DNA of 62,577 nt, taken from the NCBI GenBank assembly GCA_030612665.1, contig JAUWNL010000001.1, positions 1-62,577 on the forward strand. The letters are read 5' to 3'. The stretch's first letter is position 1. Each line of letters begins with the position of its first letter. Origin of the DNA: an archaeon (GTDB lineage Archaea > Nanobdellota > Nanobdellia > Pacearchaeales > UBA284). The translations under genes and the position numbers were made by a program. Under the pieces are notes generated by a model, which saw only the letters and a list, made by a program, of their open reading frames with translations, searched no databases and had not been told where the DNA came from. Positions 2,911 to 41,010 of the stretch are shown piece by piece.

Positions 2911-3411
2911 ATGAAGTTATTAAATTTTTTAAAATCAAATAAGAATACAAGAAAAATATTTGGAAAAAGAGAATTAAGAATAATTGAAAAACAAATTTTT
3001 GGAGTAAATTTAACACAATCAGAAAAAAATAGACTTTCAAGAGACATTAGGAAAAAATTTGAATTTATAAAAGAAATTGCAACTCTCTCTGGGGAGTTTA
3101 AACTTAAAAAAGGAAGTGAAATAAAAAAAATGATTAAAGAAGCAAAAGAAGTTATTTTGAAAGATCCTCTTTTTAAGAAAATTAGAAAAATAATATTATA
3201 TGGATCTACAGTAGAGAATAAACTAACTCTTAAATCTGATATTGATATAGCAATTAAATTTTTAGATATAAATTTAAAAGAAGCAACAGTTTTTAGGAAA
3301 AGAATATTAGGGAGAGTTAATCCAAGAATTGACATACAAATATATAATCATTTGCCAAATAAAATTAAAAGAGAAATTGAGAATAAAGGAAAAATTTTAT
3401 ATGAAAAATGA
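2911..3411 (+). CDS. Nucleotidyltransferase-domain protein (MNT-type antitoxin) with N-terminal extension
   Basis: Minimal NTase motif LYGSTVENKLTLKSDIDIAI (GS...DxD). The stop overlaps the start of the downstream HEPN gene by 4 nt. Confidence 0.8.
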   Translation: MKLLNFLKSNKNTRKIFGKRELRIIEKQIFGVNLTQSEKNRLSRDIRKKFEFIKEIATLSGEFKLKKGSEIKKMIKEAKEVILKDPLFKKIRKIILYGSTVENKLTLKSDIDIAIKFLDINLKEATVFRKRILGRVNPRIDIQIYNHLPNKIKREIENKGKILYEK

Positions 3412-3803
3412 GAATAAAAGATAAAATAAAAGAAATTGAAAATTATCTTAATGAATTAGATGAAATTATGCCAAAAAGTTTTAAGGAATATAAAAAAATA
3501 GAAAAAAAAGCAGCATGTGAAAGATATTTTGAGAAAATTATTGAAGCGGTAATTGATTTAGTTTTTCTAATAATCAAAGACAAAAATTTAAAAATCCCTG
3601 AAGAAGATAGTGAAGCTTTTGATATCCTTTTAAAAGAAAATATAATTTCAGAAGAATTAGCTGAAAAATTTAAAGAAGCTAAAGGAATGAGAAATTTAAT
3701 TGCTCATAGATATGGTAATATAGATGATGAAATCGTTTTTCATTCAATTACAGAAGAATTAGAAAAAGATGTAAAAGAACTTATTAAGATTATTAAAAAA
3801 TAA
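3408..3803 (+). CDS. HepT/DUF86 HEPN-domain toxin-like protein
   Basis: Rx4HxY HEPN RNase motif (RNLIAHRYGNID). Length is 131 aa and it is translationally coupled to the upstream NTase gene. Confidence 0.85.
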   Translation: MRIKDKIKEIENYLNELDEIMPKSFKEYKKIEKKAACERYFEKIIEAVIDLVFLIIKDKNLKIPEEDSEAFDILLKENIISEELAEKFKEAKGMRNLIAHRYGNIDDEIVFHSITEELEKDVKELIKIIKK

Positions 3804-4199: not shown

Positions 4200-7100
4200 T
4201 TAATCATGGTCATTGATTGCATTCATCTTTTTCTTTGCTTCTGCCATTATTACAATTTTCTTTTTTGCTTCTGGCTTCCTGTATTTTTCAATACATTTAT
4301 GCATTTTTCTAAGAAGCTTTGATTCAGTTTCCCAAGCCATTATAGGATCATTAGAAATATCATCAATAAATTTCACTCCGGAATAAAATCTACCATCTTT
4401 AGAAAGTAAAGTAACAACACTACCACGCATACTTGCACATTTTCCAATTCTGTGGACATAACTATTATCTGGCTGATGCCCATAATCAAGATAAACTATT
4501 TTCCATCCTTTTACAGCCCATCCCCCTTGGTGTCTGTCTGCTGTGTAAATTACAGTAGAATCTGTTCTAGTGCCATGGATTTGCTTCCAAACATCACTTA
4601 TCTCAGTAGAACGATCAAAAGTCTTATGATAAAAATCTAATTTAAGTTTCTCATTTAACCAAACCTGTGAATAAGTATTTCCTTCGCCAGGATTTGTGAT
4701 AACTTTTAATAAACCAGATTCTCTAAATTCAAGAGGATAATATTTTGAAAGTCTTCCTGTTTCTCCAGGATTATGATTTCCATCTCCCATTAAAACAATC
4801 GTGTTATGATACATCATATCTTCAAGAATAGGTTTAGTTCCCCTAATATGCAGTTCATCCTGATCAGATTGCCTCCATTTAACTCTAAGTGATTCTTGTT
4901 CTTTATTATAGAAGAAAATCATAATATTATATTCATCTTTCGTAATATCCCCTTCCTTAAGAGCTTTATTCAAATATAAAAGATCATCTTGTTTTTCAGG
5001 TAATACTTTTGCTTTTCCTTGAGCTTTAGTATCAAATTGTCCAAATGCTAATTGACCATGAGTCATCTCTGTTAACTTGACATGAGAAGGATATCCAATA
5101 CTATCAAAAGCATTTGTGAAAGTTGTTCTTATGGTGTCCCCTTCAATAGGCCTTCCTTTTGTATTACAAGTTCCTCTATGTTCATCATCATCAAGAAGAT
5201 CTATCTGGAAATTGGCTTTTACTTTATCTAAAATCCCATTAAGAGAATTATTCAATTCTTTTCTTTTTACTTTTGATAATTTTTTATCTTTTAACTGTTC
5301 TTTAATATTCTTATACCTTGTCCAATACTTTGCTCCCATTTTAGCTAATTCATAAGTTTCAATAGTGTAAGCTTCTGGTTTCCCATCAGCTTTATCAATA
5401 TAAATCAAAGGACCTGCCTGGAATCCTCTTTTAATTTTTCTTTTTATAGCCCATGTTCTCCCTGGTCCTCTTGAAGCAATATTATCAATTCTTTCTCCAT
5501 CATGCATAACTGCTCCTTTAATAAAAGTAATTGGTTTTGGGATAGCAACATATTCATTTTCAACCCATGTCTCACCAATAGCTTTTTTTCTCTGAACTTC
5601 AACACCACCAGCACCATACCCTGTAAAAATAATATCTGCAGTACATAATCTTAATTTTGAATATTTGTCTTTCTTAATCTCCCCCGCACTAAGATGCTTG
5701 GCAACTGTCTCTGCAAGAGCTTCATTAAAATATAGTTGGATTCTTCTTGAATCCCCTTCTTTCGGATAACTAGACCTTTGGAAATCAGGATTTGGAAATA
5801 AAGCAATAGTCATTCCTCCAATATCAACATAATGTGTTGCTTCATGGGGGCTGACCCCTGGATCAAATAACTTGCCAGATCTGTATTTTCCTTGGCCAGG
5901 CATTGTTTCTTCTGCTAAAGTTGTCTCAAGGCTGCTTAAAATTCTAAGATTTTTGAATTTCTTGCCTACAAATTTAGGAAGATGTTTGAAAAACATATCT
6001 TGATAATGTTTATTATATCTCTTTTTAACAAGATAAGCAGTCATCTTTGCTTGTAAATTATTAATAGTCCTTTTTTTAGTCAACCACCACATTCTTGCGC
6101 TTGTCTCTTCTTTTAATTTCAGTTTTAATTCATTTAATTTAGAAATTTTTCCTTCTAATCCAAATATCTTTTCATCAGTTTGCTCTATTTTTTCTGTGCG
6201 TATATCTTTCACTCTTTCTGCTTCATAAAGAGATTTAATATTAGCATAAAATTCTAGCATAGCATCATTAAAATACTCATCAAAACTCTTTCCCTTTTCT
6301 TTTCCTTTCTTTTTTTCCTTTCTTTTTTCCTTATCTTTTTCCCAGCGAGTATTAAATCTTATAAATCTCTTCAAACCAATTTCTTCTAGAAGTTTTTTCT
6401 TGATTTTTGCTTTCTTTCTCTGGAAAGCAGTTCCATTATAAATATTATTTTTAACAAAATCTTGCAATTCAGAACCAAGTTTTTCTTTTCCTTCTTTTTG
6501 TCTTTTTTTTGTTTGTTCTAATCTTTTTATAACATAATTGCCTAAGGATTCATACATCTCATATATTGCTCTCTCCTTAACTCTATGTATGTGTTCTTCT
6601 TCTAAATCATCGAGTTTTGCTATTTCTTCTTCTTGTGCTTTTCTTATCTTTTCCCCCACTATAAATAATTCTAATGACTGATTCATATTATAATAATCTG
6701 CCATACTATATTGATAGAATATTGCAGTATTTTTATTAAGAACATCAAAAGTAGGAGCAAGCCAATATGCCCCCTCGACAGATAATTGCTCAAGGGTAGT
6801 AGGAGTATCTATAATATATTTTTTAATATGTTCCCTGTCTTCCTTAGTAAATTCTGGGGATTCCATGGCTCTACGAATCTGCCCCAATTCTTCTTCTATT
6901 TCCTTTGTTGTAATCTCCTTCTTAAGAACCCCTCTCTTTTTGGCAAGTTCTGACCTTGCCACCTGTTTCATTCTTTCATGATTTAATTTTGACCACATTG
7001 CAGGATTTTCAGGCATTCCTCCTCCCTGCATAATAAATGATTTAAGTTTTGGGGCATAATTTTGAGCTTCGATGAAAAGAGCAAATCCTTTGAAGATGTC

Positions 7101-7496
7101 TGAATTCCCATAAGTAGCACCTAATCCTAATTCAGAGCAAAAAATATGAATTTTGTCTTCTTTATAATTTCCATTGTCTTTGCCATCTCCTTCAATTCTT
7201 CTTAGCCTTTCTTGTCTTGCAAGTCTTCTTATTCTTGCTTCATCTTGAGAAAAAATTCCACAAGGCACATCTCCAGGAAGCTCCCAATATTCCTCAACAT
7301 TATCCATTACTCTTCTAATTCTCTTCTCACCAACTCCAATCTTCTTAACTAAATCATCTAAACTAACTTTCCCAGCAGCAAGTGGAGAAGCTTGCGCTTC
7401 TTTAGAAAAAATATTACTTAAATCAGTTCCATCATAAAATTTACCTAAGGTCTTCAATAACTTAAGCTCAAGAGACCCCTTTTTTAGCCCTCTCAT
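4200..7496 (-). CDS. Large (1098 aa) uncharacterised protein: HTH-like N-terminus, K/E-rich coiled-coil middle, phosphoesterase-like C-terminal region
   Basis: Long uninterrupted ORF. N-terminal SLDDLVKKIGVGEKRIRRVM looks HTH-like. A central ~200-aa K/E-rich heptad-like region follows. C-terminal motifs occur in the order DDDEH, GDGNHN, ADRHQGG, DYGHQ. No Walker A is visible. Confidence 0.7.
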   Translation of the reverse strand: MRGLKKGSLELKLLKTLGKFYDGTDLSNIFSKEAQASPLAAGKVSLDDLVKKIGVGEKRIRRVMDNVEEYWELPGDVPCGIFSQDEARIRRLARQERLRRIEGDGKDNGNYKEDKIHIFCSELGLGATYGNSDIFKGFALFIEAQNYAPKLKSFIMQGGGMPENPAMWSKLNHERMKQVARSELAKKRGVLKKEITTKEIEEELGQIRRAMESPEFTKEDREHIKKYIIDTPTTLEQLSVEGAYWLAPTFDVLNKNTAIFYQYSMADYYNMNQSLELFIVGEKIRKAQEEEIAKLDDLEEEHIHRVKERAIYEMYESLGNYVIKRLEQTKKRQKEGKEKLGSELQDFVKNNIYNGTAFQRKKAKIKKKLLEEIGLKRFIRFNTRWEKDKEKRKEKKKGKEKGKSFDEYFNDAMLEFYANIKSLYEAERVKDIRTEKIEQTDEKIFGLEGKISKLNELKLKLKEETSARMWWLTKKRTINNLQAKMTAYLVKKRYNKHYQDMFFKHLPKFVGKKFKNLRILSSLETTLAEETMPGQGKYRSGKLFDPGVSPHEATHYVDIGGMTIALFPNPDFQRSSYPKEGDSRRIQLYFNEALAETVAKHLSAGEIKKDKYSKLRLCTADIIFTGYGAGGVEVQRKKAIGETWVENEYVAIPKPITFIKGAVMHDGERIDNIASRGPGRTWAIKRKIKRGFQAGPLIYIDKADGKPEAYTIETYELAKMGAKYWTRYKNIKEQLKDKKLSKVKRKELNNSLNGILDKVKANFQIDLLDDDEHRGTCNTKGRPIEGDTIRTTFTNAFDSIGYPSHVKLTEMTHGQLAFGQFDTKAQGKAKVLPEKQDDLLYLNKALKEGDITKDEYNIMIFFYNKEQESLRVKWRQSDQDELHIRGTKPILEDMMYHNTIVLMGDGNHNPGETGRLSKYYPLEFRESGLLKVITNPGEGNTYSQVWLNEKLKLDFYHKTFDRSTEISDVWKQIHGTRTDSTVIYTADRHQGGWAVKGWKIVYLDYGHQPDNSYVHRIGKCASMRGSVVTLLSKDGRFYSGVKFIDDISNDPIMAWETESKLLRKMHKCIEKYRKPEAKKKIVIMAEAKKKMNAINDHD

Positions 7497-8604: not shown

Positions 8605-9195
8605 ATGCAAGATTTTTTCATTGGGAAAAAAAATAAGAAAATTGAAAAGAAAGCCCTAGCTCTTGGCCTCGAAATTGTATTTCTCAAAAAAATTTCTAAT
8701 GTTGAAGAATTAGATGTAAAAAAAGATTCAAAAGATTATGATGCAATCCTCATAAAAACCCAAGATACTGGCATGATGAGAAGACTTATTGACAAAACAT
8801 CAAATTTTTTCAAATTTATTATTATCTTAGGCACAAATGACGAAATAAACCGCGCATGTCTTGAACATAAAAAAACAATAGCCCTGCTTAGCCCAGAATA
8901 CAGCAGAAGAAAAGATTTTATCAATTACCGTAATTCAGGCCTCAATCAAGTATTATGTAAAATTGCTCGCGATAATAAAAAAACCATAATTGAAAGTTTT
9001 TCAAGCATCCTCAATGCAGACAAGAAAAACAAGGCAATAATTCTTGGAAGAATAATTCAAAATGAAAAACTCTGTAGAAAATACAATGTAAAATTTATTC
9101 TTAGAAATATGGCAATAGATGAAAAAGAGATGAAATCAGCTCATGAACTAAAGAATTCTCAACAAATATTATCAAATACTACCATCTTAAAATAG
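8605..9195 (+). CDS. rnp3: RNase P protein component 3 (Rpp30/Rnp3)-like
   Basis: The pattern NRACLEHKKTIALLSPE ... SGLNQVLCKIARDNKKTIIESFSSIL ... KAIILGRIIQNEKLCRKYNVKFIL ... A.DEKEMKS matches the archaeal Rpp30 TIM-barrel layout as I recall it. Confidence 0.6.
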   Translation: MQDFFIGKKNKKIEKKALALGLEIVFLKKISNVEELDVKKDSKDYDAILIKTQDTGMMRRLIDKTSNFFKFIIILGTNDEINRACLEHKKTIALLSPEYSRRKDFINYRNSGLNQVLCKIARDNKKTIIESFSSILNADKKNKAIILGRIIQNEKLCRKYNVKFILRNMAIDEKEMKSAHELKNSQQILSNTTILK

Positions 9196-9252
9196 TAAAA
9201 TAGCAAAGTTTTTATAAGGTTCTAAATTGGATTTTATAGGCTAAGGAAAAAA

Positions 9253-10461
9253 ATGGTGCGAGAATATAAAGCACCTGAAGGATGTATTGTTACTACTAAA
9301 ATTATAAGAAAAATATTAGAAACAGGAAAAACAGACGAAAGTGAAAGCAGGATAAAAAATAAAATTAATAGAATAACCAAAACGAGGAATTACTTAAAAA
9401 AGTCTAATAAAAATAACATGTATACATTTATTAGAGAGAAATATGAGAATACTGTAATTAGCCTCTATTTCAAAGATCTAAAAAAACAAATGAAAAATGA
9501 GAGAAAAATAAAAAATTCTGGATTCAGTTTTTATAGTCCTTTTTTTAGGCCAGAAAGATTAAGAAGAGAGAAAAAATTAAGTTATAATCCTCTCATAAAT
9601 GTTAAAATAAAAGTATCAAAACCATTAAAAAAAGAAGAAGAAATTGCACTTTTTCAAGAACTTGGATGGCATGAATATGTTATTAAACATAATAAAAAAA
9701 TCCTTAAAGAAGTACTAGACAATGGCTGTCATCCTACAAAAATAAAATATCTAGAGCAAGTAATTTCAAAACATGAAGAAGAAAAAATAGCAGTAAAAGA
9801 AGAGATTTTTTCCTCTTTTAATCTTTTAATTATAAACAAATTAAAAAAATTTGGAATGAAACATCCAGAAGAAATAGGTAATTTATATGATCTCTATATA
9901 GCAATTTATTATGATTTTGATAAACAAATTGGGAATTTTAAGGAAGGCAGTTCAAATGCCAAATTTACTACATGGTATGAATATCACATCATGCACCAAA
10001 TAAAAAAATGGCCTTGGAAAAATAACATAATCCAAATGTCTCCTCCTTGTAAAAGGAATGCAGAAGAAACAGTAAATATGAAACTAAATGCAAGAAATCT
10101 TTTCTCAATAGATTTTCTTGTAAGTGGAGAAAAAATAAATGAAGGTGAAACCCCTGCAGGAGAAATTATGAAAGCAAAACCAGAGTATTTAAAAGATAAT
10201 TTTGTAAGAGAAATTAATTTAAAAATAACAAACAAAAAAATAAATGATATTCTTGAAAAAAAATTAACTCCACGAGAAGCAAAAATTTTGAAAATACGTT
10301 ATAGTGAACCTTCCCTAGTAAAATTCGGGGAAATTGGAAAAATAGATAAAATAACAAAACAAAGAATTCAACAAATAGAAGCAAGGGCATTAGAAAAGTT
10401 AAGAAAAAATCCAGAAATAAGGAAACTCAATGGAATGGTTAATGATTCTTATAGAAAGTAA
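9253..10461 (+). CDS. Sigma-70 family-like protein (regions 1.2, 2 and 4 recognisable)
   Basis: Region 4: LTPREAKILKIRYS...FGEIGKIDKITKQRIQQIEARALEKLRK. Region 2: FNLLIINKLKKFG...LYDLYIAIYYDFDKQIGNF...AKFTTWYEYHIMHQIKKW. Region 1.2/2.1: YFKDLKK ... PLKKEEEIALFQEL. Confidence 0.75.
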   Translation: MVREYKAPEGCIVTTKIIRKILETGKTDESESRIKNKINRITKTRNYLKKSNKNNMYTFIREKYENTVISLYFKDLKKQMKNERKIKNSGFSFYSPFFRPERLRREKKLSYNPLINVKIKVSKPLKKEEEIALFQELGWHEYVIKHNKKILKEVLDNGCHPTKIKYLEQVISKHEEEKIAVKEEIFSSFNLLIINKLKKFGMKHPEEIGNLYDLYIAIYYDFDKQIGNFKEGSSNAKFTTWYEYHIMHQIKKWPWKNNIIQMSPPCKRNAEETVNMKLNARNLFSIDFLVSGEKINEGETPAGEIMKAKPEYLKDNFVREINLKITNKKINDILEKKLTPREAKILKIRYSEPSLVKFGEIGKIDKITKQRIQQIEARALEKLRKNPEIRKLNGMVNDSYRK

Positions 10462-10484: not shown

Positions 10485-10739
10485 TTATAAAAAATCCGAA
10501 TGACCAAATTGGACAAGCAAATCAACCTTAATCATTTTTAATTCTGGAATATCACAAGCCCCATAACAACTATCAATCCAAATAAAACATTTTGCATTAC
10601 TCTGAGATTCAATTTCATCAACAATCTCCAATGCCTTAGGTTTAAGTCCTTCAGGTAATTGAACCAAAACACTCGATGCTTTTTGTTTCTTGATTTCTCT
10701 GATTACCCGATTTAATTCTAAATCATATATCTCTTCCAT
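10485..10739 (-). pseudogene. dph2: N-terminal ~84-aa fragment of Dph2 (2-(3-amino-3-carboxypropyl)histidine synthase); remaining ~250 aa absent
   Basis: SSVLVQLPEGLKPKALEIVDEIE...CYGACDI...VDLLVQFGHS matches the Dph2 N-terminal domain. The ORF stops right after GHS, and the next 24 nt run into the 3' end of the convergent sigma-like gene. Confidence 0.7.
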
Positions 10740-11290: not shown

Positions 11291-11719
11291 TTATTTAATA
11301 ATAATTTGGATTATTCCAAAATACTTTTCGAGAATATTCTTAAGATTATTAATTCTTGTTCTATTTCTGCCTATAATAAGAGCCCTAGCTTGGGGGCCAG
11401 CCTGTATTGTCACTTTATTTGTCTCAATAATAATTCTTTTGAATTTAACAGGATAGATGAGGGTTTCTATAAAATGTGCTATATCAGCGGGAACAGAGGG
11501 GATTGCAACAACTCTAACTTTGTGATTCATTATTCTTGATAGTTTATTAACATTTATTCCTTTTTCCCCAATTGCCTTTGACACTAAATAACCAGGAACT
11601 GCGAAGATAATAGAGTTATTAAATTCAAAACAATATCTTGTTTTAATTCTAGTAATCCTTTCAAAAAGATTAAGATACTGAATTGCTCTCATGTTTATCT
11701 TTGATCTCAAGATTTTCAT
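11291..11719 (-). CDS. nusA: Archaeal NusA-like protein (two KH domains)
   Basis: KH GxxG motifs (KAIGEKGINVNKL; LIIGRNRTRINNL). The position after rpoA and rpl30e is the canonical archaeal one. Confidence 0.85.
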   Translation of the reverse strand: MKILRSKINMRAIQYLNLFERITRIKTRYCFEFNNSIIFAVPGYLVSKAIGEKGINVNKLSRIMNHKVRVVAIPSVPADIAHFIETLIYPVKFKRIIIETNKVTIQAGPQARALIIGRNRTRINNLKNILEKYFGIIQIIIK

Positions 11720-11904
11720 TTTTTTAGATAAATATTATATTTATATTCTTCTCCTGTTGGGATTATACACAAAACAAATGATTTTCTTTGGTTTTTATAT
11801 TTCTTTATTCTGTTGATTATTTGACTATAATCTTTTACAGGACCCCCTTCATGGTCATAAAAATCCAGTTTTTCTAAAAGCTTGGTAAGTTTTAGTTTTG
11901 GCAT
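11716..11904 (-). CDS. Small (62 aa) conserved hypothetical protein wedged between rpl30e and nusA; paralogue of 50837..51073
   Basis: I trimmed the 130-aa ORF to MPKLKLTKLLEKLDFYDHEGGPVKDYSQIINRIKKYK.... Its ATG lies 1 nt after the rpl30e stop and its stop overlaps the nusA ATG. It is similar to LLEKIGYHPDRGEPVKNLERVSEKIKSY in the ORF next to rpoL. Confidence 0.5.
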   Translation of the reverse strand: MPKLKLTKLLEKLDFYDHEGGPVKDYSQIINRIKKYKNQRKSFVLCIIPTGEEYKYNIYLKK

Positions 11905-11905
11905 T

Positions 11906-12364
11906 TTATTTTTTCTTTTCTTCCTTCTTTTCTTTTTTCTTCTTATCTTTTTTCTTTTTTTCCTTTTTTTCCTTTTTTTCTTTTTTGTCTTTCTTGTTTT
12001 TTGTTTTTTGTTTTTTGTTTTTCTCTGGTTTCTTTTTCTCCTCTTTTTCTTTTTCTTTTGTCTCTTCTTCTTTCTTTTCTTCTTCTCTTTTTGGTTTTTG
12101 TTTTCCAAGGATACTCAAGATAGAAATATTAAAAGGTTTTTTACAGATATCTTTTAATTCTTCTTTTGAAAATTCAAGAAAAATAAGGTCTATTTTTTGT
12201 TTTTTAGCTAGAGTATTTATTCTTTTTTTTATTTCTTCAGGACAATCTTCAGCAACATAAATTTTCTCGATGATATCTTTTTTCTTAAAAGCAATTTTTG
12301 TACCGAAAATCGCTTCCTTAGTCTTCAATTCTTTCTTCAATCGTAAAGTTATATTTATAACCAT
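11906..12364 (-). CDS. rpl30e: Ribosomal protein L30e with ~70-aa K/E-rich C-terminal tail
   Basis: Core IFGTKIAFKK...VAEDCPEEIKKRINTLAKKQKIDLIFLEFSKEELKDICKKPFNISILSIL fits L30e. The operon position is canonical. The tail is KREEEKKEEETKEKEKEEKKK.... Confidence 0.8.
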   Translation of the reverse strand: MVINITLRLKKELKTKEAIFGTKIAFKKKDIIEKIYVAEDCPEEIKKRINTLAKKQKIDLIFLEFSKEELKDICKKPFNISILSILGKQKPKREEEKKEEETKEKEKEEKKKPEKNKKQKTKNKKDKKEKKEKKEKKKKDKKKKEKKEEKKK

Positions 12365-12393: not shown

Positions 12394-15300
12394 TTATTTC
12401 TTTGCTTTTGTTGTTTTGGTGGTTTTTGATGTTTTTGCAGGTTTTACAATTTTTGCAGGTTTTGCTTTTTTTTCTTTTTGTTTTCCTTCCTGTTTCTTCT
12501 CTTTTTTTCTTGCTAAGGCCAATGCATCTTGTGCGCTTATCTTAACAAGTAATCCTGGAAGTCCGGTCCCTACTGGAATTGGTTGATTCAACATTACATT
12601 TTCTACAACACTTACAAGATGGTCTGTTGATCCTTTCAAAGAGGCATTTATAAAATGTTTAATTGGAGTTTCAAAACTTGCCCTTGCGAGTATAGAAGAT
12701 TTGTCACGGATAATTCCTACTCTTGTAACCCCCCTGATTATTCCTCCCGAAGTCATGGCATCTGCTACGAGTTTGATATGTTTGTCATCAACATCTAATC
12801 CTTGTTGGGTTATAACTTTAGAAATCTCATTTACAATTGCTTGTCTTGCAGATTCTATTCCAAGAACTTTAGCGATTTCATGAATATCATTTGAAGTAGT
12901 TCTGTGTTTGTCTATTCCCTTTATTTCAAAAATCTCTTCAAGATTAGATCCCCCTGTTAGAATAACATATTTATTTTCTCTCTTCACAAGAAGAATTTGT
13001 TTTATTCCTTTAACTCCACTAACAATTGTATTTTTCAATTTTTCTTTAAGTTTAAACAATTGTTTGAAATCTTGAAAATCTTCTTTTTTAGCCCGAATCA
13101 TTAATCCTTTTTCATTTTTTCTTATCTTAAATAATTTTGATTCCTTAGCCTCAAAGGCTTTGATTATTCTTTCAGGTGTAAGATGAAGATTCCTTAACAT
13201 CTCATTATCTAATAGCACCTGTATTTTTTTATCAAGGAAATTAAGATTAATTTCAGAGGCAACATCAATAAGCTTTATCTCTTTAATTCTTGCAGCCATC
13301 CTCTTTGCATCTTTTTCATTATCATAATCTCTTTCAAGGTAAATTTCCATTGCAGGAGTACTGGGTTTCTTTCTAGCATCAAAGATTTCAATCAGTCTAG
13401 GCAATCCAACAGTAATCTGCATCTCTGAAACACCAGCAAAGTGGAAAACATTAAGGGTCATCTGTGTCGATGGTTCTCCAAAACTTTGAGCAGTGATTAC
13501 CCCAATTGCTTCTCCAGGAGTAATTTTATTGTCAGGAAGGTGTTTCTTAGAAACATCTATTCCATCATCACCATATTTAAACTGAATCAACCTCGAGTTT
13601 GCATCTCTGACTGTACCATCATATTCTATACGGAGATCCTGAAGAGCATTAACAAGTCTTCTATAAAGATAACCAGATTTAGGAGTTCTTAATGCAGTAT
13701 CCATTAAACTATCACGTCCTGTTATCGCACTAAAGAAAAATTCATCAGGATCAAGTCCAGAAAGATAACTTGAAGTTATAAATCCATGAGCTCTGGGGGA
13801 TAGGTCTTTTTCTTTAAAAAATGAGAGAGTTCTGTTATTATAACCTAAATCAATTCTCTTGGCCCATAAAGTTTGTTGACCCACAAGGCAAGACATCTGT
13901 GTGATATTTATCATATTTCCATGAGAACCAGATAAAATCATAGTATAAGCAGGATTAGTTAATGACATCCCTTGTTTTAAGCTCCCATTTAGAAGATCCC
14001 CAACTTTTCCTCTAACTGCATTAAGGGATTGAAGACTTTTAACTTCACGTGTTTCCTCAAGGGTTTTTCCAGGAATTATATTAAGGGAACCATCATAATA
14101 AGATTGGATTATATTTTTAACCTTTTTCTCAGCATCGTTCACAATTTTATCTTTTTCTTTAATGAGTTCTTTACTTGTTTGAATATCTTTAATCGAAATA
14201 GTGAAACCTTTACGAGTTAGATAATTAATCCCCAATAAAAATATTTTTCTTAAGAATTCTATTGTTTTCTCTCTTCCAATTACAGAATCAAGATGCCTGA
14301 TTAGAGTACTCTGTTCAACCCCTACAAGATTATTATCAACAACTCCTGAAATCATTTTTCCATTCTTGATAGAAATATAACTATTATATGGACAATTTTC
14401 TTTTTTACATTTATTATAATGAGGACACTCCTTTCCTTTACAAGATCTCGATTTTGCCTCAAAATTAGTTTTGGGAAGGCAAACTGAAAAAATTTCTTTT
14501 CCGTCGACAATATTTCTAAAACTATTGCTACTCTTTGAAATTTCTCCTGAAGTTAGACCACTTGTAGCAAGAAGTTGAACTGCTTCTTCTTTTGGAAATT
14601 TATCTTGAGTCAATAAGTAGAGTCCAGTTGTTGCATCATCTATACAACCAAAAACATTTGTATTATTCTTTGGGGAGATGAGTTGTTTCTGAGAGTCCAT
14701 CAAAACTTTAGCTTCAGCTCTGGCTTCTTCTGTCTGTGGAACATGAACATTCATTTCATCACCATCAAAATCCGCATTATAAGGGAAAGTAGTTATTGGA
14801 TGAATTCTAAAAGTCCTGTCTGGAAGAACCTTGACAAAATGAGCCATTAAACTCATCCTATGCAAAGAAGGATGTCTATTAAATAATACAACATCTCCAT
14901 CTTGTAAATGTTTTTCAACAATATAACCTGGAACAATCTCTTCATAAATCTGTTCTCTAAGCTCATCTGTAATTCTTTTTTTCTTTCCATCTGGGCGGAT
15001 GATTCCAGTTGCAGCAGGATATTCTTTTCTCTTTATTAATCCTTTAAGGTAATCAATATTATCAAGAGTTACTCGCTCAGGAATTGTTAAAACTTTGGCA
15101 ATTGCATAAGGCACCCCAACTTCATTTATCTTCATAAAAGGTTCTGGGGAAATAACTGTTCTTGAACTGAAATTTACACGTTTACCAGCCAAGTTATGCC
15201 TGATTCTACCCTGTTTACCTTTAATTCTCTCGGTGATAGTTTTTAATGGCTGTCCACTTCTATGTCTAGCAGGAGGAACATGACTTATTGAATTATTAAA

Positions 15301-16059
15301 GAAAGTAGTTATATGATATTGGAGCAAGTCCCAGAGATCTTCTATAATAACTTCAGGAGCTCCGGCATTTAAATTCTCCCACAGCCTTTGATTTGCCCTG
15401 ACAATGTCCCCAAGTTTATGAGTCAAGTCATCTTCACTTCTTTCCCCTGTTTCAAGTGTAATGCTTGGTCTGACAGTTACAGGAGGAACTAATACAAGAG
15501 TAAGTACTGCCCACTCTGGTCTAAATGTTTTTGGATTTATTCCAAACAATGAAAGATCTTTGTCAGATACTTTCACTAGCTTCGCACGAATTTCACTAGG
15601 GAAAATCCTTGATTTACCTTGATAAAAAGTACTTGGTTTCTCGAGTTTAATTTTATCCTGCTTTGTGCCACAATATGGGCATTTCTTCGCAGTCTTTGCT
15701 TTGAGAATTCTTTTAAGACCAATATCTTTTTCATCAAGAAGAATCCTAGCACATTCTTGGCAAGTTGATCGAAGAATTAATTCAATAATTGAAGCAAAGT
15801 TAACATGGATAACTGGTCTAGCTAATTCAATAAAACCAAAATGTCCAAAACATTCTTTGAGTTTTCCCCCGCAGGTTCTGCATCTTACCCCAGGGTCTAT
15901 TGCCCCTAAACGAAGATCCATCAAACCTCCGTCAACAGGATAACCATCCATATCATAAAGTTCTGGAGTAACAATTTTAGCTACCCCCATTTTCTTAATC
16001 TGTTCAGGAGAAAAAATACTAAACTTAATTGCCTTGACTTGTTTTGTTATTGGCTCCAT
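12394..16059 (-). CDS. rpoA: DNA-directed RNA polymerase subunit A, with A' and A'' parts fused in one 1221-aa ORF
   Basis: Zinc motif CRTCGGKLKECFGHFG and catalytic YNADFDGDEMNVH mark the A' part. The trigger-loop GEAIGVITAQSFGEPSTQMTLNVFHFAG marks the A'' part. Both lie in one frame with no stop. The C-terminus has a K/T/A-rich tail. Confidence 0.95.
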   Translation of the reverse strand: MEPITKQVKAIKFSIFSPEQIKKMGVAKIVTPELYDMDGYPVDGGLMDLRLGAIDPGVRCRTCGGKLKECFGHFGFIELARPVIHVNFASIIELILRSTCQECARILLDEKDIGLKRILKAKTAKKCPYCGTKQDKIKLEKPSTFYQGKSRIFPSEIRAKLVKVSDKDLSLFGINPKTFRPEWAVLTLVLVPPVTVRPSITLETGERSEDDLTHKLGDIVRANQRLWENLNAGAPEVIIEDLWDLLQYHITTFFNNSISHVPPARHRSGQPLKTITERIKGKQGRIRHNLAGKRVNFSSRTVISPEPFMKINEVGVPYAIAKVLTIPERVTLDNIDYLKGLIKRKEYPAATGIIRPDGKKKRITDELREQIYEEIVPGYIVEKHLQDGDVVLFNRHPSLHRMSLMAHFVKVLPDRTFRIHPITTFPYNADFDGDEMNVHVPQTEEARAEAKVLMDSQKQLISPKNNTNVFGCIDDATTGLYLLTQDKFPKEEAVQLLATSGLTSGEISKSSNSFRNIVDGKEIFSVCLPKTNFEAKSRSCKGKECPHYNKCKKENCPYNSYISIKNGKMISGVVDNNLVGVEQSTLIRHLDSVIGREKTIEFLRKIFLLGINYLTRKGFTISIKDIQTSKELIKEKDKIVNDAEKKVKNIIQSYYDGSLNIIPGKTLEETREVKSLQSLNAVRGKVGDLLNGSLKQGMSLTNPAYTMILSGSHGNMINITQMSCLVGQQTLWAKRIDLGYNNRTLSFFKEKDLSPRAHGFITSSYLSGLDPDEFFFSAITGRDSLMDTALRTPKSGYLYRRLVNALQDLRIEYDGTVRDANSRLIQFKYGDDGIDVSKKHLPDNKITPGEAIGVITAQSFGEPSTQMTLNVFHFAGVSEMQITVGLPRLIEIFDARKKPSTPAMEIYLERDYDNEKDAKRMAARIKEIKLIDVASEINLNFLDKKIQVLLDNEMLRNLHLTPERIIKAFEAKESKLFKIRKNEKGLMIRAKKEDFQDFKQLFKLKEKLKNTIVSGVKGIKQILLVKRENKYVILTGGSNLEEIFEIKGIDKHRTTSNDIHEIAKVLGIESARQAIVNEISKVITQQGLDVDDKHIKLVADAMTSGGIIRGVTRVGIIRDKSSILARASFETPIKHFINASLKGSTDHLVSVVENVMLNQPIPVGTGLPGLLVKISAQDALALARKKEKKQEGKQKEKKAKPAKIVKPAKTSKTTKTTKAKK

Positions 16060-16383: not shown

Positions 16384-19300
16384 TTATTCATATTTATTTT
16401 TTAATATTAAATGAGGAAAAATATGCAATGCTCCAAGCTCTTCGAGTAATAATTTTGAAGCATATGAAATTTCTATTGGCTCTAGACTCACTTGGCCACA
16501 AATAGGACAAACCTCGCGCTTTCTAATCCTGTCTTTAATTCCAAGGGCACCACATTGAGGGCAAACATAAGCAATAATATTATCAGAACCAAATCTTTCT
16601 TTTAATAGCAAAGAAGCTCCGTGAGCTACAAGAGCATCTTTTTCCATCTCCCCAAGTCTAAGGGCTCCGCCCTTAGCTCTGCCTTCAACAGGCTGACGAG
16701 TAAGTAAGGTGACTTTTCCAGAAGCTCTCATCTGTATTTTATTAGCCACCATATATTTTAACTTAAGATAATACATATTACCAATGAAAATCTTAGCCTT
16801 GAGAGGCTTGCCTGTCAAACCATCATATAAAGTTTCTTTTCCATCTGGTCTGAAACCAAGATCAAGAAGTTGATGCTCAATTTCCTCAATCTTTTGTCCA
16901 GAAAAAGGTGTTGCATCAACTGATTTTCCAGATAAACATCCAATTTTTCCAGCAAGTAATTCAATAAGATAACTAACAGTCATTCTGCTTGGAATTCCAT
17001 GAGGATTAAAAATTAAATCTGGTCTAACTCCCTTGGAAGTGAAAGGAATATCTTCTTCAGGGGCAATCAATCCAATGACTCCTTTTTGTCCGTGAGTTGT
17101 TGAAAATTTATCTCCAGGTTCAGGACTTCTATAATCTCTGGTTCTAACCTGGACAATCCTATTGCCTTCTTTATCAATTGTAATAAACACTGCGTCTATT
17201 GTTCCTTTTTCTCCTTGCCTTATAACAACACTGTTTTCTTTTTTAGACCTTGCCAAGCTTATCTCTTCCATTTCAAGCAAAAACTTTGGAGGGGAAGTCT
17301 TTCCAATAACAACCTCTTCTTCCTTTAGATTAGCTTCAGGATAAACAATTCCATCATCTTCAAGGAATTTGTAGGACTTTTCAGTTCTATAACCAGTTAT
17401 GTCTTTTGTAGGAATACAAAATTCATCTTTAAGATTTCCAGTATAACGCAATGCAACACTAGAATATGGTCTGAAATAAGTGCTCCTACTTAATCCTCTT
17501 TCAAGGCTTCCTTTGTTCATAACAAGGGCATCTTCAAGATTATATCCTTCATAAGGCAGAAGTGCGACAACCATGTTTTGTCCTGCTGGGTAAAAATTAG
17601 TTGCATCATAAAGAAAACTCCTTACAATAGGTTTTTGAGGATAATGCAAAATACTGACATCAGTATCAATAAGACTCTGAAAGTTTGCAGCATAAATCCC
17701 TAAAGATTGCTTCTGTGTCTTGCTTCCACGATTAAGTCTTGAAGCTCCGTCGTAGTTAGCAAAAGGAACAAGTCCAGTGATTAAACCAAGCATTGCGATA
17801 GAATCAATTTCAACATGAGTAGATGTAGATTCAATATTTTTTTTAGTCATTGCAATAAAACAATTATCTTCCTCAGCAGCATCAACATATTCAATAATTC
17901 CTTTAGTAATTAAATCATTCCAATTTAATTCCCCATTTTTAATATCTCTAATATGTTTCTTAGTCAACAAAGACTTTCCCTCTTTTACAACAACAAGTGG
18001 TCTCAACACACGTCCAGATTCACCACTTATTGTGATAATATTAGTAGACCTATCATGTCTGATACATAAATCGTGAGGAATCTCATCGCCTCTTCTTTTT
18101 TCTTTAAAACTTAAAAGAAAATTCCCAGCATCCTCGATACCACCAAGAAATTTTCCATTATAAAAAACATCAACATATCCTTTATTTATTTCTTTTTTCA
18201 ATCCAATTCCTTGAAGAAGAGAGATAAACTTTTTCTCATCAACCTCAATAAAGGTAGTTACTCTAGCAAGTAAAGCGAGATTTTTTCTGAGGCCAATCGG
18301 TGTTCCTTCAGGTGTCTCGATTGGACAGAATCTTCCAAAATGAGTAGGGTGTAATGTTCTTGCCTTGAAATTTTCTTGTTCACTAGGTAATAAACTAACA
18401 ACACGCTGGAGTTGAGAAAGGATAGATAATCTATTTGTTTTATCCATATTCTGGGTTGTTCCAGTTCTCTCCCCTACCCATGATCCAGTGGCTATTGCAC
18501 TTTTAATTCTATGAGAAAATAATGTTGATTTTGCCATGCTCTTCAGAGAATAAAATTTTTTCTTCTTTGCAATTTTTTGAAGACTGTGCTGCAAGTCACG
18601 AATAAAAATAGTCAAATTTAGCCTAAAAAGATCAAAAAGCAAATCCCCGCTCAATCTAACACGCTTGTTAGAATAATGGTCCTTGTCACTCACCATCTTC
18701 AATTCCTTGGTCATAACTAAAAAATATTTAATAAGTTTACATAAAGTCACAGCTTTTTCATATCTATCTTGTTGTTTTGTTCCAAGATGAGGCAACAGGG
18801 CAGAATCAATTCTGGTCTTGAGTCTATCAAGAACTTCTTTTTGTGTTCCCTGAATATTCATTTTTCCAGCCAAAGCAACAAGAGCTTCTTTTGAATCTTT
18901 GATAGAAGCATATTCATATAAATTAACAATAAAACTATCTGTCTCTCTTTCAATAAGATTTGCAATATCTTCATCGCGGGTAACACCAAGAGATTTAATT
19001 AAAAGTAAGGCAGGCAAATTTTTAAAACGAGAAAAAGAAACTAAAATCATCCCTTCATTTGTTTCAATAATAGAAATGGGGATTCTATAACTTCCTCGTT
19101 TAGAAAAAAGCCTTAGCATAGGTCCCTTTGTAGTTTTTTCAATAAATGGCTGGTTTGGAGCAAGATCTTCAATCATTACAAGAACTCTTTCATTTCCATT
19201 AATAATAAAATATCCTCCAGTATCATCCGGGTCTTCGTAATTTTCAACTAACTCCTCTCGAGACATGCCATAAAGATTACAGCATTTACTCTTAACCATG

Positions 19301-19818
19301 ATTGGAATCCTGCCAATTTCAACATTATTAAATTCCTTTCTATCAAGTCCGGTGCTAATTTCAAGAGTAACTGGAGCAGAATAAGTAAGCTTCCTTAACT
19401 TAGCTTCAATAGGCAATATAGTGTGGGAAGAACCATCTGCTTCAATAATGACTGGTTTCCCAACTTTAATTTTTCCAAGATTTAATTCAACTTCATCTTT
19501 AGAAATGTCCTCATTAATTGAATCAATAATTTGTTGGAGTCTTTTTTCAATAAAAGCATTATAAGAAGTAAGATTAGATTCAACAAGGGAATATTCTTTA
19601 AGGTATTTTTTAATAAGGATATGTTCTCTCTCTTCCTCTTCTTCCCCGCCTGCTTCTTCTTTCCCTTTTTCTTCTTCTTTCTCTACCTCTTCTTTTCCTT
19701 CCTCTCCTTTTCCTTTCTTTTCTTCTCCTTCTTTCTTTTCTTCTTCTTCTGGCTTTTCTCCTACTTTTTCTTTCTTATTTTCAATTTTCTTATTTTTCTC
19801 AGGTTCTACTTCAGCCAT
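16384..19818 (-). CDS. rpoB: DNA-directed RNA polymerase subunit B (unsplit) with ~65-aa E/K/G-rich N-terminal extension
   Basis: GDKFSTTHGQKGV, RMTVSYLIE and LRLGEMEKDAL motifs, plus the C-terminal zinc ribbon CPQCG...CPICG. Length is 1144 aa. Confidence 0.95.
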   Translation of the reverse strand: MAEVEPEKNKKIENKKEKVGEKPEEEEKKEGEEKKGKGEEGKEEVEKEEEKGKEEAGGEEEEEREHILIKKYLKEYSLVESNLTSYNAFIEKRLQQIIDSINEDISKDEVELNLGKIKVGKPVIIEADGSSHTILPIEAKLRKLTYSAPVTLEISTGLDRKEFNNVEIGRIPIMVKSKCCNLYGMSREELVENYEDPDDTGGYFIINGNERVLVMIEDLAPNQPFIEKTTKGPMLRLFSKRGSYRIPISIIETNEGMILVSFSRFKNLPALLLIKSLGVTRDEDIANLIERETDSFIVNLYEYASIKDSKEALVALAGKMNIQGTQKEVLDRLKTRIDSALLPHLGTKQQDRYEKAVTLCKLIKYFLVMTKELKMVSDKDHYSNKRVRLSGDLLFDLFRLNLTIFIRDLQHSLQKIAKKKKFYSLKSMAKSTLFSHRIKSAIATGSWVGERTGTTQNMDKTNRLSILSQLQRVVSLLPSEQENFKARTLHPTHFGRFCPIETPEGTPIGLRKNLALLARVTTFIEVDEKKFISLLQGIGLKKEINKGYVDVFYNGKFLGGIEDAGNFLLSFKEKRRGDEIPHDLCIRHDRSTNIITISGESGRVLRPLVVVKEGKSLLTKKHIRDIKNGELNWNDLITKGIIEYVDAAEEDNCFIAMTKKNIESTSTHVEIDSIAMLGLITGLVPFANYDGASRLNRGSKTQKQSLGIYAANFQSLIDTDVSILHYPQKPIVRSFLYDATNFYPAGQNMVVALLPYEGYNLEDALVMNKGSLERGLSRSTYFRPYSSVALRYTGNLKDEFCIPTKDITGYRTEKSYKFLEDDGIVYPEANLKEEEVVIGKTSPPKFLLEMEEISLARSKKENSVVIRQGEKGTIDAVFITIDKEGNRIVQVRTRDYRSPEPGDKFSTTHGQKGVIGLIAPEEDIPFTSKGVRPDLIFNPHGIPSRMTVSYLIELLAGKIGCLSGKSVDATPFSGQKIEEIEHQLLDLGFRPDGKETLYDGLTGKPLKAKIFIGNMYYLKLKYMVANKIQMRASGKVTLLTRQPVEGRAKGGALRLGEMEKDALVAHGASLLLKERFGSDNIIAYVCPQCGALGIKDRIRKREVCPICGQVSLEPIEISYASKLLLEELGALHIFPHLILKNKYE

Positions 19819-23383: not shown

Positions 23384-23456
23384 AGCGCGGGGAGGGACTC
23401 GAACCCTCGAATAGTCGGGTTGCAGCCGACTGCCGTAGCCGCTGAGCCACCCGCGC
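23384..23456 (-). tRNA. tRNA-Cys (GCA), 73 nt, no encoded CCA
   Basis: The reverse complement folds as a cloverleaf. Acceptor GCGCGGG/CCCGCGC, anticodon stem GTCGG/CCGAC with loop CTGCAAC, T-arm GAGGG-TTCGAGT-CCCTC, and discriminator U73. It forms a GC-rich island in AT-rich DNA. Confidence 0.9.
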
Positions 23457-23591: not shown

Positions 23592-23708
23592 TGGGTCCAA
23601 CGTGACTCGAACACGCAACCCCTAGCTATCTTCGTTTTCTCTCCAGGGTCTCTTTCCTAAAGAGAGCCTTTAGAAGGCTAGTGCTCTATCCAATTGAGCT
23701 ATGGACCC
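23592..23708 (-). tRNA. tRNA-Arg (TCT) with a ~43-nt intron at the canonical 37/38 position (about 23628..23670)
   Basis: Acceptor GGGTCCA/TGGACCC and D-arm GCTC-AATTGGATA-GAGC. The anticodon stem CTAGC/GCTAG is interrupted after CTTCTA. T-arm GCGTG-TTCGAGT-CACGT. The mature length would be 74 nt. Confidence 0.85.
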
Positions 23709-23738: not shown

Positions 23739-24449
23739 TTACCTATTAGTGTTATTTCTATTAAAATTATGGACATTAGAAAAAGACATGCTTTGATTAA
23801 ATAAAGTACTTTGGTTTTTACCATGTGTTTTAGCATACTTCAAAGCTATATTTGCTTTATCAAATAAATCATCTTTGCTCCCAGATTCATTTATTGGCAT
23901 GAATTTCTTATAAAGATTTTTACTTTTATCAAAAATACTCTTCGCCTGAGCCTGCTCGCCATTATTCTCGCAGGCAATACCAGCACTAATCGTCAAGTTA
24001 TATGATTTCAAAAAAGGATCATTTAGTACCATAGTTCTCAGTCTTTCAGCCATCTCTTTTGCCCTATCGATTTTTGTTTCAGGAAGTAAAACAGTAAACT
24101 CTTCTCCTCCAAATCTTGCAGGAACATCAGTGTCTCTGACATTGTTTCTGATAATAGATGAAACCCTCTTCAGCATCTCATCACCCATTTTATAACCATA
24201 TTTATCATTAATCTTCTTAAAATCATCAATATCGACGAGAATCATGGCAATAGCCCTCTTGTATCTTTGAGCAATAGCAACCTCATGCTTTACTTGTGTT
24301 TCAAAATATCTAGAATTATATAAATTAGTTTTTGTATCTCTAGTAGCTAATCGATAAAGCTTGGCAACTTCCTGCATATTATACTGGAATTTTTTTTCAG
24401 GCCTGGTTGTAAGTGCCTTCTTGACCTTTCTAACAATCTTCTTAATCAT
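23739..24449 (-). CDS. GGDEF-domain protein (diguanylate cyclase homologue) with RxxD I-site
   Basis: LVDIDDFKKINDKYGYKMGDEMLK...RDTDVPARFGGEEFTVLLPET...ISAGIA...ALKYAKTHGKNQ. I trimmed the start to MIKKIV because the longer ORF (to 24542) would overlap the divergent tatD start. Confidence 0.85.
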   Translation of the reverse strand: MIKKIVRKVKKALTTRPEKKFQYNMQEVAKLYRLATRDTKTNLYNSRYFETQVKHEVAIAQRYKRAIAMILVDIDDFKKINDKYGYKMGDEMLKRVSSIIRNNVRDTDVPARFGGEEFTVLLPETKIDRAKEMAERLRTMVLNDPFLKSYNLTISAGIACENNGEQAQAKSIFDKSKNLYKKFMPINESGSKDDLFDKANIALKYAKTHGKNQSTLFNQSMSFSNVHNFNRNNTNR

Positions 24450-24521
24450 CTTAAAAAATAATAAATTTAATACAAAAAAGATGTTCGATATGTTTAAAAA
24501 TTTAACCCTTTTCACAATATT

Positions 24522-25898: not shown

Positions 25899-25918
25899 AA
25901 TAAAGGGAATAAAATGAA

Positions 25919-25942
25919 AATCAAAGATTTTCATCTTTGATT
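25919..25942. other. 10-bp perfect hairpin (AATCAAAGAT-TTTC-ATCTTTGATT) in the spacer between the NTase and HEPN genes
   Basis: Read directly from the sequence. Its function (processing site, terminator/attenuator or protein-binding site) is unknown. Confidence 0.5.
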
Positions 25943-25965
25943 GAAAATTTATAATTTTCAACAAA

Positions 25966-37949: not shown

Positions 37950-38012
37950 GAATAATAACAAGAATAATAAGGGTAAGAAATTATTAAGGAAATAAGAATA
38001 ATAAGGGTAAGA
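37934..38012. repeat. Imperfect tandem duplication (~46 plus 33 nt) that repeats the last codons and stop of the preceding gene
   Basis: ATTATTAAGGAAATAAGAATAATAA occurs at 37934 and 37980. AAGAATAATAAGGGTAAGA occurs at 37961 and 37994. Confidence 0.7.
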
Positions 38013-38083
38013 TAATAAGGACAAAAAATTATTAAGAAAAGAATAAAAATAATAAAAAATAAATAAACCCCAAGCTAAGAAAA

Positions 38084-40911: not shown

Positions 40912-41010
40912 TGATTGACTACTAATGATTATGATTGAGAAAATTCATCTTTCTTTATAAATTTAATTGTTGCACGTTATATTTTTAAATTGCTGTTGTC
41001 TCATACAACT

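Follow-up and report, generated by a model that had tools for sequence, protein, structure and literature searches.

A degenerate sigma-70 family protein resident in the chromosome of a narrow clade of Pacearchaeota-type archaea

We analyzed a 62,577-nt stretch of DNA from an archaeon of the Pacearchaeales lineage UBA284 (GenBank assembly GCA_030612665.1, contig JAUWNL010000001.1, positions 1 to 62,577 of the forward strand), hereafter called the window. A sequence-only reading of this DNA had described a sigma-70 family homologue native to an archaeal chromosome, and this was borne out by the Pfam model Sigma70_r4, the NCBIfam model TIGR02937, profile-profile alignment (hhalign) and synteny. 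The open reading frame (ORF) lies at 9253..10461 on the + strand, begins with ATG and encodes 402 aa followed by a stop, as delimited by the ORF list, the sequence and family models. We show that the protein descends from a bacterial sigma factor of the primary (RpoD/SigA-like) type, acquired by an ancestor of a narrow Pacearchaeota-type clade of DPANN archaea and vertically inherited since. It has retained the fold of sigma-2, a linker resembling region 3.2 and, in sigma-4, a helix-turn-helix (HTH) that is nearly canonical. Most of sigma-3, the polar residues for the beta-prime clamp helices and, in all but one orthologue, the tryptophan pair for opening the −10 element have been lost. Our preferred but tentative reading, to which we give a probability of about 0.4, is that the protein acts within the archaeal TBP/TFB transcription system, most simply by binding DNA with its sigma-4 domain.

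In textbooks, bacterial transcription is set apart from archaeal/eukaryotic transcription by sigma factors on the one side and TBP/TFB on the other. A descendant of sigma that has been kept for so long in a streamlined archaeal genome, by the RNA polymerase (RNAP) operon, is a natural experiment on the sigma scaffold without its polymerase. Should DNA binding be its only activity, the protein would illustrate the demotion of a basal factor to an ordinary regulator. If it is bound to the archaeal RNAP, the sigma/clamp interface would be transplantable across domains, with a bearing on the proposed sharing of mechanisms by sigma and TFB/TFIIB. The five orthologues and a sigma-free outgroup locus make up a small, concrete set of proteins for tests of sigma function in archaea.

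The phenomenon is not new, because sigma-70 genes have already been reported in DPANN archaea (PMC8204110). Castelle et al. (2021) described sigma-70-classified genes (fam00359) on DPANN archaeal scaffolds, most prevalent in Woesearchaeota; they excluded mis-binning, saw no anti-sigma factors and considered the mechanism beside TBP/TFB/TFE unclear (PMC8204110). The window protein represents the same phenomenon and raises the same question. Its partner and role, called unexplained from the sequence, are likewise left open for the DPANN sigmas (PMC8204110). In contrast to the Woesearchaeota-rich fam00359, the window family was confined, within the searches made, to one narrow Pacearchaeota-type clade. 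A functional study of archaeal sigma homologues was not found in the literature searched. What is new here is a variant of unusual divergence and reduced architecture, for which the clade, locus and outgroup are defined and the residues described.

Sigma-70 homology and primary-type ancestry

Pfam Sigma70_r4 (PF04545) matched residues 337-385 of the window protein at 33.9 bits (gathering score, 24.1), in agreement with the near-textbook region 4 read from the sequence; no other Pfam match was credible. The same model matched all four orthologues (33.9-62.7 bits). A phmmer search of the PDB with the single protein matched only region 4 of RpoD/SigA (best E 1.6e-6). The claim of a region 2 fared unevenly, holding with TIGR02937, hhalign and structure comparison but not with Pfam Sigma70_r2 (PF04542). 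The latter model did not match the window protein at E up to 1, and the orthologues scored 13.8-16.9 bits, below the gathering score of 24, so that 0/5 members passed. Sigma70_r3 matched neither the window protein nor the orthologues. TIGR02937, the sigma-70 superfamily model that covers regions 2 and 4, scored 48.8 bits over residues 185-385 (cut-off, 42.9) and was passed by 5/5 family members, the other four at 46.9-65.8 bits. On single-sequence evidence alone, region 4 appears solid and region 2 borderline.

Profile searches extended the homology beyond region 4. The family profile matched bona fide bacterial primary sigmas with E values down to 1e-22, and hhalign aligned it to bacterial primary sigmas over 203 columns (probability 99.7%, E 8e-27), with window residues 179-392 corresponding to regions 2.1 to 4.2. 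When the PDB was searched with the family profile (hmmsearch), B. subtilis SigA (7ckq_F) was matched in a single colinear stretch (E 2.8e-30).

Structure prediction, proposed earlier as a check, gave the same assignment. A single-sequence AlphaFold2 (AF2) model was unusable, with a predicted local distance difference test (pLDDT) score of 37, and an alignment-built model was used. Its pLDDT was 84-96 over most of residues 121-260 and 78-93 over residues 321-390, with dips at residues 201-210 (57) and 231-240 (71). The best 47 PDB matches of this model (Foldseek) were all bacterial sigma-factor chains, nearly all of them sigma70/SigA, over ~250-460 aligned columns. Its sigma-4 superposed on solved structures of sigma region 4 alone, some of them bound to DNA, with a root-mean-square deviation of 1.3-2.8 Å. 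Because region 2 is significant at the superfamily, profile-profile and fold level, the protein is more than a LuxR-like HTH. Curated and profile criteria confirm it as a true sigma-70 superfamily homologue, beyond an HTH protein.

The less degenerate orthologues point to the type of ancestor. Their best specific NCBIfam models were of the RpoD/SigA type: RpoD_Cterm scored 85 bits in P0007, the best orthologue, and 83 bits over positions 3-229 of 238 in the member from locus L093. The best matches of the family profile were bacterial primary sigmas that bear regions 1.2, 2, 3 and 4. Because L093 spans RpoD_Cterm 3-229 and RpoD/SigA-type models score best, the ancestor was a primary-like sigma in which sigma-3 shrank later. 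That L093 can still be aligned across this model shows that the two-domain state of the window protein arose when sigma-3 was lost.

Like the bacterial group 1/2 factors RpoD and SigA, the window family has colinear regions 1.2 and 2.1-2.4, the start of 3.0, the 3.2 linker and 4.1-4.2, and the region 4.2 helix TRERIRQIE is identical in two orthologues. Unlike them, the window protein scored only 38.8 bits with RpoD_Cterm (equivalog cut-off, 354) and approached no equivalog cut-off; sigma-3 is mostly deleted, the core-binding residues and the tryptophan dyad are replaced, a ~145-aa N-terminal extension and a conserved C-terminal tail are added, and the RNAP in the window is archaeal. The extracytoplasmic function (ECF, group 4) sigmas share with the window protein an effective reduction to sigma-2 plus sigma-4, and the protein passes TIGR02937, a “sigma70-ECF” model. 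Unlike ECF sigmas, it has a region 1.2-like helix, a region 3.0 stub and a 3.2-like linker, and the family scores best with RpoD/SigA-type models. No anti-sigma gene was found next to the sigma-like gene, which is flanked by Rpp30 and by a Dph2 mini-ORF. Archaeal Tfx and LuxR/GerE-type regulators have a region 4-like HTH and presumably ordinary DNA binding, as the window protein may have. Unlike the window protein they are without sigma-2, and the NCBIfam Tfx model was marginal (13.3 bits; cut-off, 60.25). MzaA of the MZA anti-phage system shares the sigma-2 to sigma-4 homology (L093, 86.6 bits over MzaA positions 454-702). MzaA is ~700 aa long and has the partners MzaB-E, none of which occurs near the sigma-like gene. 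By the criteria tested, the window protein does not qualify as a functional bacterial sigma, a primary sigma equivalog, an ECF sigma or an MzaA.

Full-length relatives were few. Among 1.84 billion representative proteins, phmmer returned only three besides the window protein: P0006 (38% identity to it), P0007 (29%) and P0020 (26%). All remaining matches covered region 4 only or a short C-terminal stretch, except one 129-aa fragment identical to the N-terminus of the window protein. The fifth family member (452 aa) was found in L093 by synteny. A word-indexed protein search with the single window protein returned only itself, and a metagenome contig scan with a region 2-only alignment returned only the P0020 lineage. 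A genome contig scan with the family alignment was dominated by region 4 of bacterial sigmas. Candidate phyla radiation (CPR)/Patescibacteria sequences were frequent among the best region 4 matches, among the matches listed. This is a weak hint of the donor only, because composition bias could produce such matches. The nearest non-family relatives (P0009, P0155 and P0162) all lay among bacterial genes, and an archaeal context for them was rejected.

Retained domains and lost residues

The claim that the protein is full-length did not hold, because most of sigma-3 is missing in the hhalign alignment. Residues 259-330 (10027..10242, +) comprise a region 3.0 stub and an acidic, region 3.2-like linker, and gaps of ~20 and ~12 columns at bacterial regions 3.0/3.1 correspond to deletion of most of this domain. 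The stub reads IIQMSPP, where bacterial sigmas have IRIPVH. The linker runs FSIDF...ETPAGEIM, and the SID/SLD of the family aligns with the SLE/SLD of region 3.2. AF2 pLDDT fell below 50 at residues 260-268 and 279-309.

The sigma-2 domain (regions 2.1-2.4, residues 181-258; 9793..10026, +), located by hhalign, TIGR02937 and AF2, is degenerate; apart from the two dips, its AF2 pLDDT was mostly 84-91. In region 2.2, the bacterial DLIQEGNLGL is replaced by DLYIAIYYDF, and in regions 2.3/2.4, FSTYATWWIRQAI is replaced by FTTWYEYHIMHQI. In E. coli sigma-70, region 2.2 contacts the beta-prime clamp helices through D403, Q406, E407 and N409, and −10 melting and recognition depend on Y430, W433, W434, Q437 and T440 of regions 2.3/2.4. 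The equivalents of Q406/E407/N409 are I/A/Y in the window protein and are conserved in 0/5 members. The equivalents of W433/W434 are Y/H in the window protein; the tryptophan pair was kept in P0007 only, and the others have YH, PG or KQ.

The sigma-4 domain (regions 4.1-4.2, residues 331-386; 10243..10410, +) was delimited by PF04545, PDB region 4 matches and Foldseek, and its recognition helix is ITKQRIQQIEARALEKLRK. It is the best-conserved part of the family (39% mean pairwise identity, compared to 23-37% in other regions). In region 4.2, P0007 and L093 have RERIRQ, one member has KERIRQ, the window protein has KQRIQQ and P0020 has KQRASQ. The RERIRQIE of P0007 and L093 is identical to that of primary sigmas. 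Because sigma-4 is the most conserved region, carries this identical motif and superposes on solved structures, it appears to be the functional core of the protein.

Outside these domains, the N-terminal extension (residues 1-149; 9253..9699, +) is family-specific, has no Pfam match and has no assigned fold. It carries a conserved PLxKxEExxLF stretch, part of what the sequence-only reading had taken for region 1.2. A profile of the extension found nothing credible in the PDB (best E 0.31, a haemagglutinin), and AF2 pLDDT was mostly 30-65 over the first 100 residues and rose to 69-94 over the final fifty. The extension (~145 aa) is present in 4/5 orthologues, and P0020 is without roughly the first 50-80 residues. 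Region 1.2 had been read from the sequence at YFKDL...PLKKEEEIALFQEL (residues ~72-137) and was probably misplaced. In the HMMER alignment, residues 103-134 of B. subtilis SigA (RMYLKEIG...) correspond to positions 149-181 of the family profile, within the colinear stretch. Judged by this alignment, region 1.2 most likely lies at residues ~150-180, directly N-terminal to region 2.1, as a putative helix (KILKEVLD...LEQVISKHEEE; 9700..9792, +). The C-terminal tail (10411..10458, +) ends in N-x-x-[Y/N/F]-R-[K/R] in the five-member alignment. N397 and R401 are invariant in 5/5 members, and the tail has no bacterial counterpart in the alignment with bacterial sigmas.

Archaeal locus, inheritance and promoter

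The sigma-like gene is native to an archaeal locus. The same gene with the same junctions was present in three further assemblies from different samples (L003, 100% identical; L002, 99.84%; L087, 99.74%), and diverged orthologues share the slot in four further lineages. Because the junctions are identical in three independent assemblies and the slot recurs in four diverged lineages, a chimera at the gene, raised earlier as something to check, is excluded, and we consider an assembly artefact extremely improbable. The G+C content of the gene (25.9%) was like that of its neighbors (25-31% in surrounding 1-kb windows), as had been noted.

The archaeal character of the flanks was upheld for Rpp30, MTS, NusA and the RNAP genes, but the “dph2” gene proved to be an 84-aa ORF that covers no more than the start of the 302-position profile. 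RNase P component 3 (Rpp30; 8605..9195, +) was identified by Pfam RNase_P_p30 (E 1.7e-5) and NCBIfam (E 3e-16) and stands immediately 5′ of the sigma-like gene in 5/5 lineages. The Dph2 N-terminal mini-ORF (10485..10739, −), convergent and downstream, matches positions 1-56 of 302 of Pfam Diphthamide_syn. A Dph2-like ORF of 83-87 aa was kept in L001, L084, L093, L094 and L095, outgroup included. It is therefore a stable mini-gene and no recent truncation, because its length is conserved in all relatives. Further archaeal flanks were an MTS (Mtq2-like) methyltransferase, a NusA-type KH protein, an L30e/L7Ae-like protein and the archaeal RNAP genes for Rpb1-type RpoA (1221 aa) and Rpb2-type RpoB. 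The named relatives of RpoB were Pacearchaeota, Nanoarchaeota or Nanoarchaeia.

The order Rpp30(+) sigma(+) dph2N(−) MTS(−) NusA(−) L30e(−) RpoA(−) RpoB(−) was found in L001, L084/L085 and L093. In L084, GlmS is inserted after the sigma-like gene, and on the 2.4-kb contig L086 an upstream Rpp30-like ORF is the only visible neighbor. In an outgroup Pacearchaeote (L094), whose RpoB is 68% identical, the neighborhood is shared, except that a pyruvoyl arginine decarboxylase gene (PvlArgDC) lies between dph2N and Rpp30 and there is no sigma-like sequence within 23 kb. Given the shared junctions, the conserved slot and this sigma-free outgroup locus, the gene is a clade-specific, vertically inherited resident and not an island. 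Among the window ORFs with a length of 120 aa or more, all but a few of which were scanned, we found no bacterial-type RNAP genes, only Rpb1-, Rpb2- and Rpb5-type ones.

The ORF is not open by chance, because the probability of 402 stop-free codons is ~1e-18 (analytic) and 0/20,000 shuffled versions of 9253..10461 were without a stop. At the base composition of the gene, the stop probability per codon is 0.097, so that ~9 codons are expected between stops; each of the remaining five frames contains 13-50 stops over the same interval. ORFs of 355-452 aa stay open across five lineages, compared to the ~9 codons expected by chance, which indicates selection for coding capacity.

The protein itself has diverged quickly. 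It was 29% identical between the window and L084 (neighbors 47-77%, one non-orthologous pair excluded), 30% between the window and L001 (neighbors 61-81%) and 39% between the window and L086 (Rpp30 78%). The sigma-like gene is the fastest-evolving of its neighborhood, ~2-3x faster than every neighboring gene. The strain variants L087 and L002 showed one synonymous and one non-synonymous change in the gene, and the other orthologues were saturated.

A candidate archaeal BRE/TATA promoter (ATAGCAAAG-TTTTTATAAGG; 9200..9220, +) precedes the gene. Its TATA-like element AGTTTTTATAAGG (9208-9220) is separated from the ATG by 34 nt, in line with the ~35 nt of the sequence-only reading. AAAG-TTTTTATA or AAAG-TTTAAATA was kept 5′ of the orthologues in L086 and L001; the promoter core was kept as AAAGTTTTTATA in L086 and as AAAGTTTAAATA in L001, and was less clear in L084 and L093. 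Because this BRE/TATA-like element is conserved upstream, the gene would be transcribed from its own archaeal promoter. Co-transcription with Rpp30 is also possible, because the Rpp30 gene is always co-directional and 35-67 nt upstream. Sigma-70-type promoters were not in excess around the gene (16 found; 14.0 ± 3.4 expected).

Three other features of the neighborhood were noted. RpoA (12394..16059, −) is a single 1221-aa ORF with Rpb1 domains 1-5, in which A′ and A″ are fused. A′ and A″ are separate genes in most archaea; fused RpoA proteins of 1171-1204 aa were also found in L084, L093, L094 and L095. RpoB (16384..19818, −) has a Lys/Glu-rich 24-aa insertion near its N-terminus (residues 28-51) that is specific to the sigma-carrying clade; 10 other RpoB sequences of the Pacearchaeota type do not have it. 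Across Rpp30 from the sigma-like gene, 4200..7496 (−) encodes an orphan protein of ~1,056-1,098 aa for which Pfam, NCBIfam, the PDB and PADLOC gave no match. The orphan protein was also found in L002, L087, L084/L085 (4863..8033) and L093 (22892 onwards), that is, in most sigma-carrying loci with contigs that reach far enough, and it was not seen on the 6.8-kb L001 contig. In the outgroup L094, neither it nor the sigma-like gene occurs in the 23 kb that surround the RNAP operon. The two genes were possibly co-acquired or functionally linked.

Possible roles of the protein and other features of the contig

ALTERNATIVES tested were a viral or mobile origin, a defence function, bacterial-type promoters, an RpoB docking site and the nearest non-family relatives. 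Three roles had been suggested from the sequence, namely a repurposed regulator, action on the bacterial RNAP of a host or symbiont, and a viral function, and the first remains the most economical. Because the Q/E/N and WW positions are replaced, sigma-3 is deleted and no bacterial RNAP gene was found among the scanned window ORFs, the protein has probably lost its canonical function and would no longer be a bacterial-style initiation factor. As a sequence-specific DNA-binding factor, it would use sigma-4 as its reading head, and sigma-2 with the N-terminal extension may serve as a scaffold or partner-binding module. Archaeal Tfx regulators, which use a sigma region 4/LuxR-like HTH, are a precedent for such DNA binding.

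Several observations weigh against a plain DNA-binding role. Sigma-2, the region 3.2-like linker and the sigma-2 to sigma-4 order were kept in 5/5 lineages, and this layout fits an RNAP-spanning protein, because a plain HTH regulator would not need sigma-2 and the linker. We found no target motif: TTGACA was not enriched across the window (35 occurrences; 46 ± 6 expected). No common target sequence is implied, because the DNA-contact residues of region 4.2 vary among the orthologues. The AF2 fold support is not independent of the sequence evidence, because the alignment consists mostly of bacterial sigmas. The fast evolution of the gene could also mean weak constraint.

The retained layout speaks for the main rival reading, which we regard as doubtful: a factor re-tooled for binding to the archaeal RNAP, as an accessory or alternative initiation factor beside TBP/TFB. 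Sigma-2 would sit on the clamp coiled-coil of Rpo1, from which the linker would extend to the side of RNA exit, and upstream DNA would be read by sigma-4. The clamp coiled-coil is common to all multisubunit RNAPs and is used by TFE and Spt5 in archaea. Sigma-2, an acidic region 3.2-like linker of near-canonical length and sigma-4 were all kept in five lineages, and the replaced core-binding residues could be an adaptation to another clamp surface. The clade-specific N-terminal extension and the C-terminal tail could be new contact modules, and the position of the gene is fixed beside the RNAP operon. However, synteny at this phylogenetic depth may be merely inherited gene order. The former interface residues also vary within the family, which is unexpected for a fixed docking surface, and the sole clade-specific RpoB indel is the low-complexity N-terminal Lys/Glu insertion, away from the flap and wall. 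A hybrid form of initiation, in which the sigma-like protein docks on the archaeal Pol II-like RNAP beside TBP/TFB, sigma-2 competes with or replaces TFE/Spt5 at the clamp coiled-coil and sigma-4 reads upstream DNA, seems unlikely.

The divergence of the gene would also be expected of a decaying relic of horizontal transfer with little or no present function, which we consider quite improbable. The protein is the fastest-evolving of its neighborhood (29-39% identity, compared to 47-81% for neighbors), its canonical functional residues and sigma-3 are lost, and the Pfam region 2 model failed. However, an intact ORF of 355-452 aa persists in five lineages whose housekeeping proteins have diverged to 47-81% identity (chance P ~1e-18), and conservation is seen in sigma-4 and in several motifs. 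Dead genes should disappear from DPANN genomes, given how small and streamlined these are.

Rapid evolution is also typical of host-parasite interfaces and would suit a protein aimed at the bacterial RNAP of a host or partner of the DPANN cell, redirecting its transcription. Region 4.2 is still near that of primary sigmas, whose binding targets are the −35 element and the beta flap, and CPR/Patescibacteria sigmas are among the nearest region 4 matches, among the matches listed. We consider this role very unlikely. It is weakened by the loss of Q406/E407/N409 for core binding and of the −10 melting residues, together with the deletion of sigma-3. A signal peptide or hydrophobic segment was not found in the protein, in which the longest hydrophobic run is 4 residues, and secretion genes were not linked to it. 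Most of the hosts known for DPANN cells are themselves archaea.

An origin in a virus, mobile element or anti-phage defence system (such as an MZA-like system with MzaA) is largely refuted: MzaA models match the window protein (37.8 bits with NCBIfam, 32.6 with PADLOC; L093, 86.6 and 54.9) and HEPN/MNT toxin-antitoxin pairs occur elsewhere in the window, but the MzaA matches are confined to the shared sigma domains and lie far under the cut-off of 800, the flanks are housekeeping genes in conserved order, and the composition equals that of the neighbors. PADLOC on the gene and its unknown neighbors gave no system, its output for the neighbors being empty save a marginal Cas11e match of the Rpp30-like protein (E 0.007), and a defence system was rejected. 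A viral origin, and with it the suggested viral role, was likewise rejected, as a viral contig scan gave two matches, both to region 4 alone, and viral structures (BFVD) matched more weakly than cellular ones (best E 1.5e-3, compared to 8e-6).

We made several further observations on the contig. In the L30e-like region (11716..12364, −), the window and L002 have a 7-nt insertion at 11994..12000 in a Lys-rich low-complexity linker, which splits the 213-aa L30e-like ORF of strain L087 into overlapping ORFs of 152 and 130 aa. The insertion reflects a frameshift at the strain level or else a misassembly of the repeat. Over 16 kb, 23/35 mismatches between the window and L087 are synonymous changes within rpoA (12394..16059), and this clustering suggests a recombination tract. 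A protein with a GGDEF diguanylate cyclase domain (23739..24542, −; 134 bits) is a second bacterial-type regulatory gene on the contig.

The arginyl-tRNA synthetase gene is split or interrupted. It occupies two consecutive ORFs ~93 nt apart, of which the first (40990..41622, +) holds the N-terminal domain and catalytic profile positions 2-113, and the second (41716..42711, +) holds positions 144-349 and the DALR domain. Toxin-antitoxin-like MNT/HEPN pairs (Polbeta nucleotidyltransferase plus HepT/HEPN) were found at 2911..3803, 25320..26433, 27482..28393 and 33302..34095. The genes for the origin-associated proteins OapB and OapC adjoin at 37530..38473 (+), and because they lie side by side, a nearby replication origin is suggested. 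Rfam detected a 117-nt tRNA at 23592..23708 (−) that was missed by ARAGORN and presumably contains an intron; it adjoins tRNA-Cys (23384..23456).

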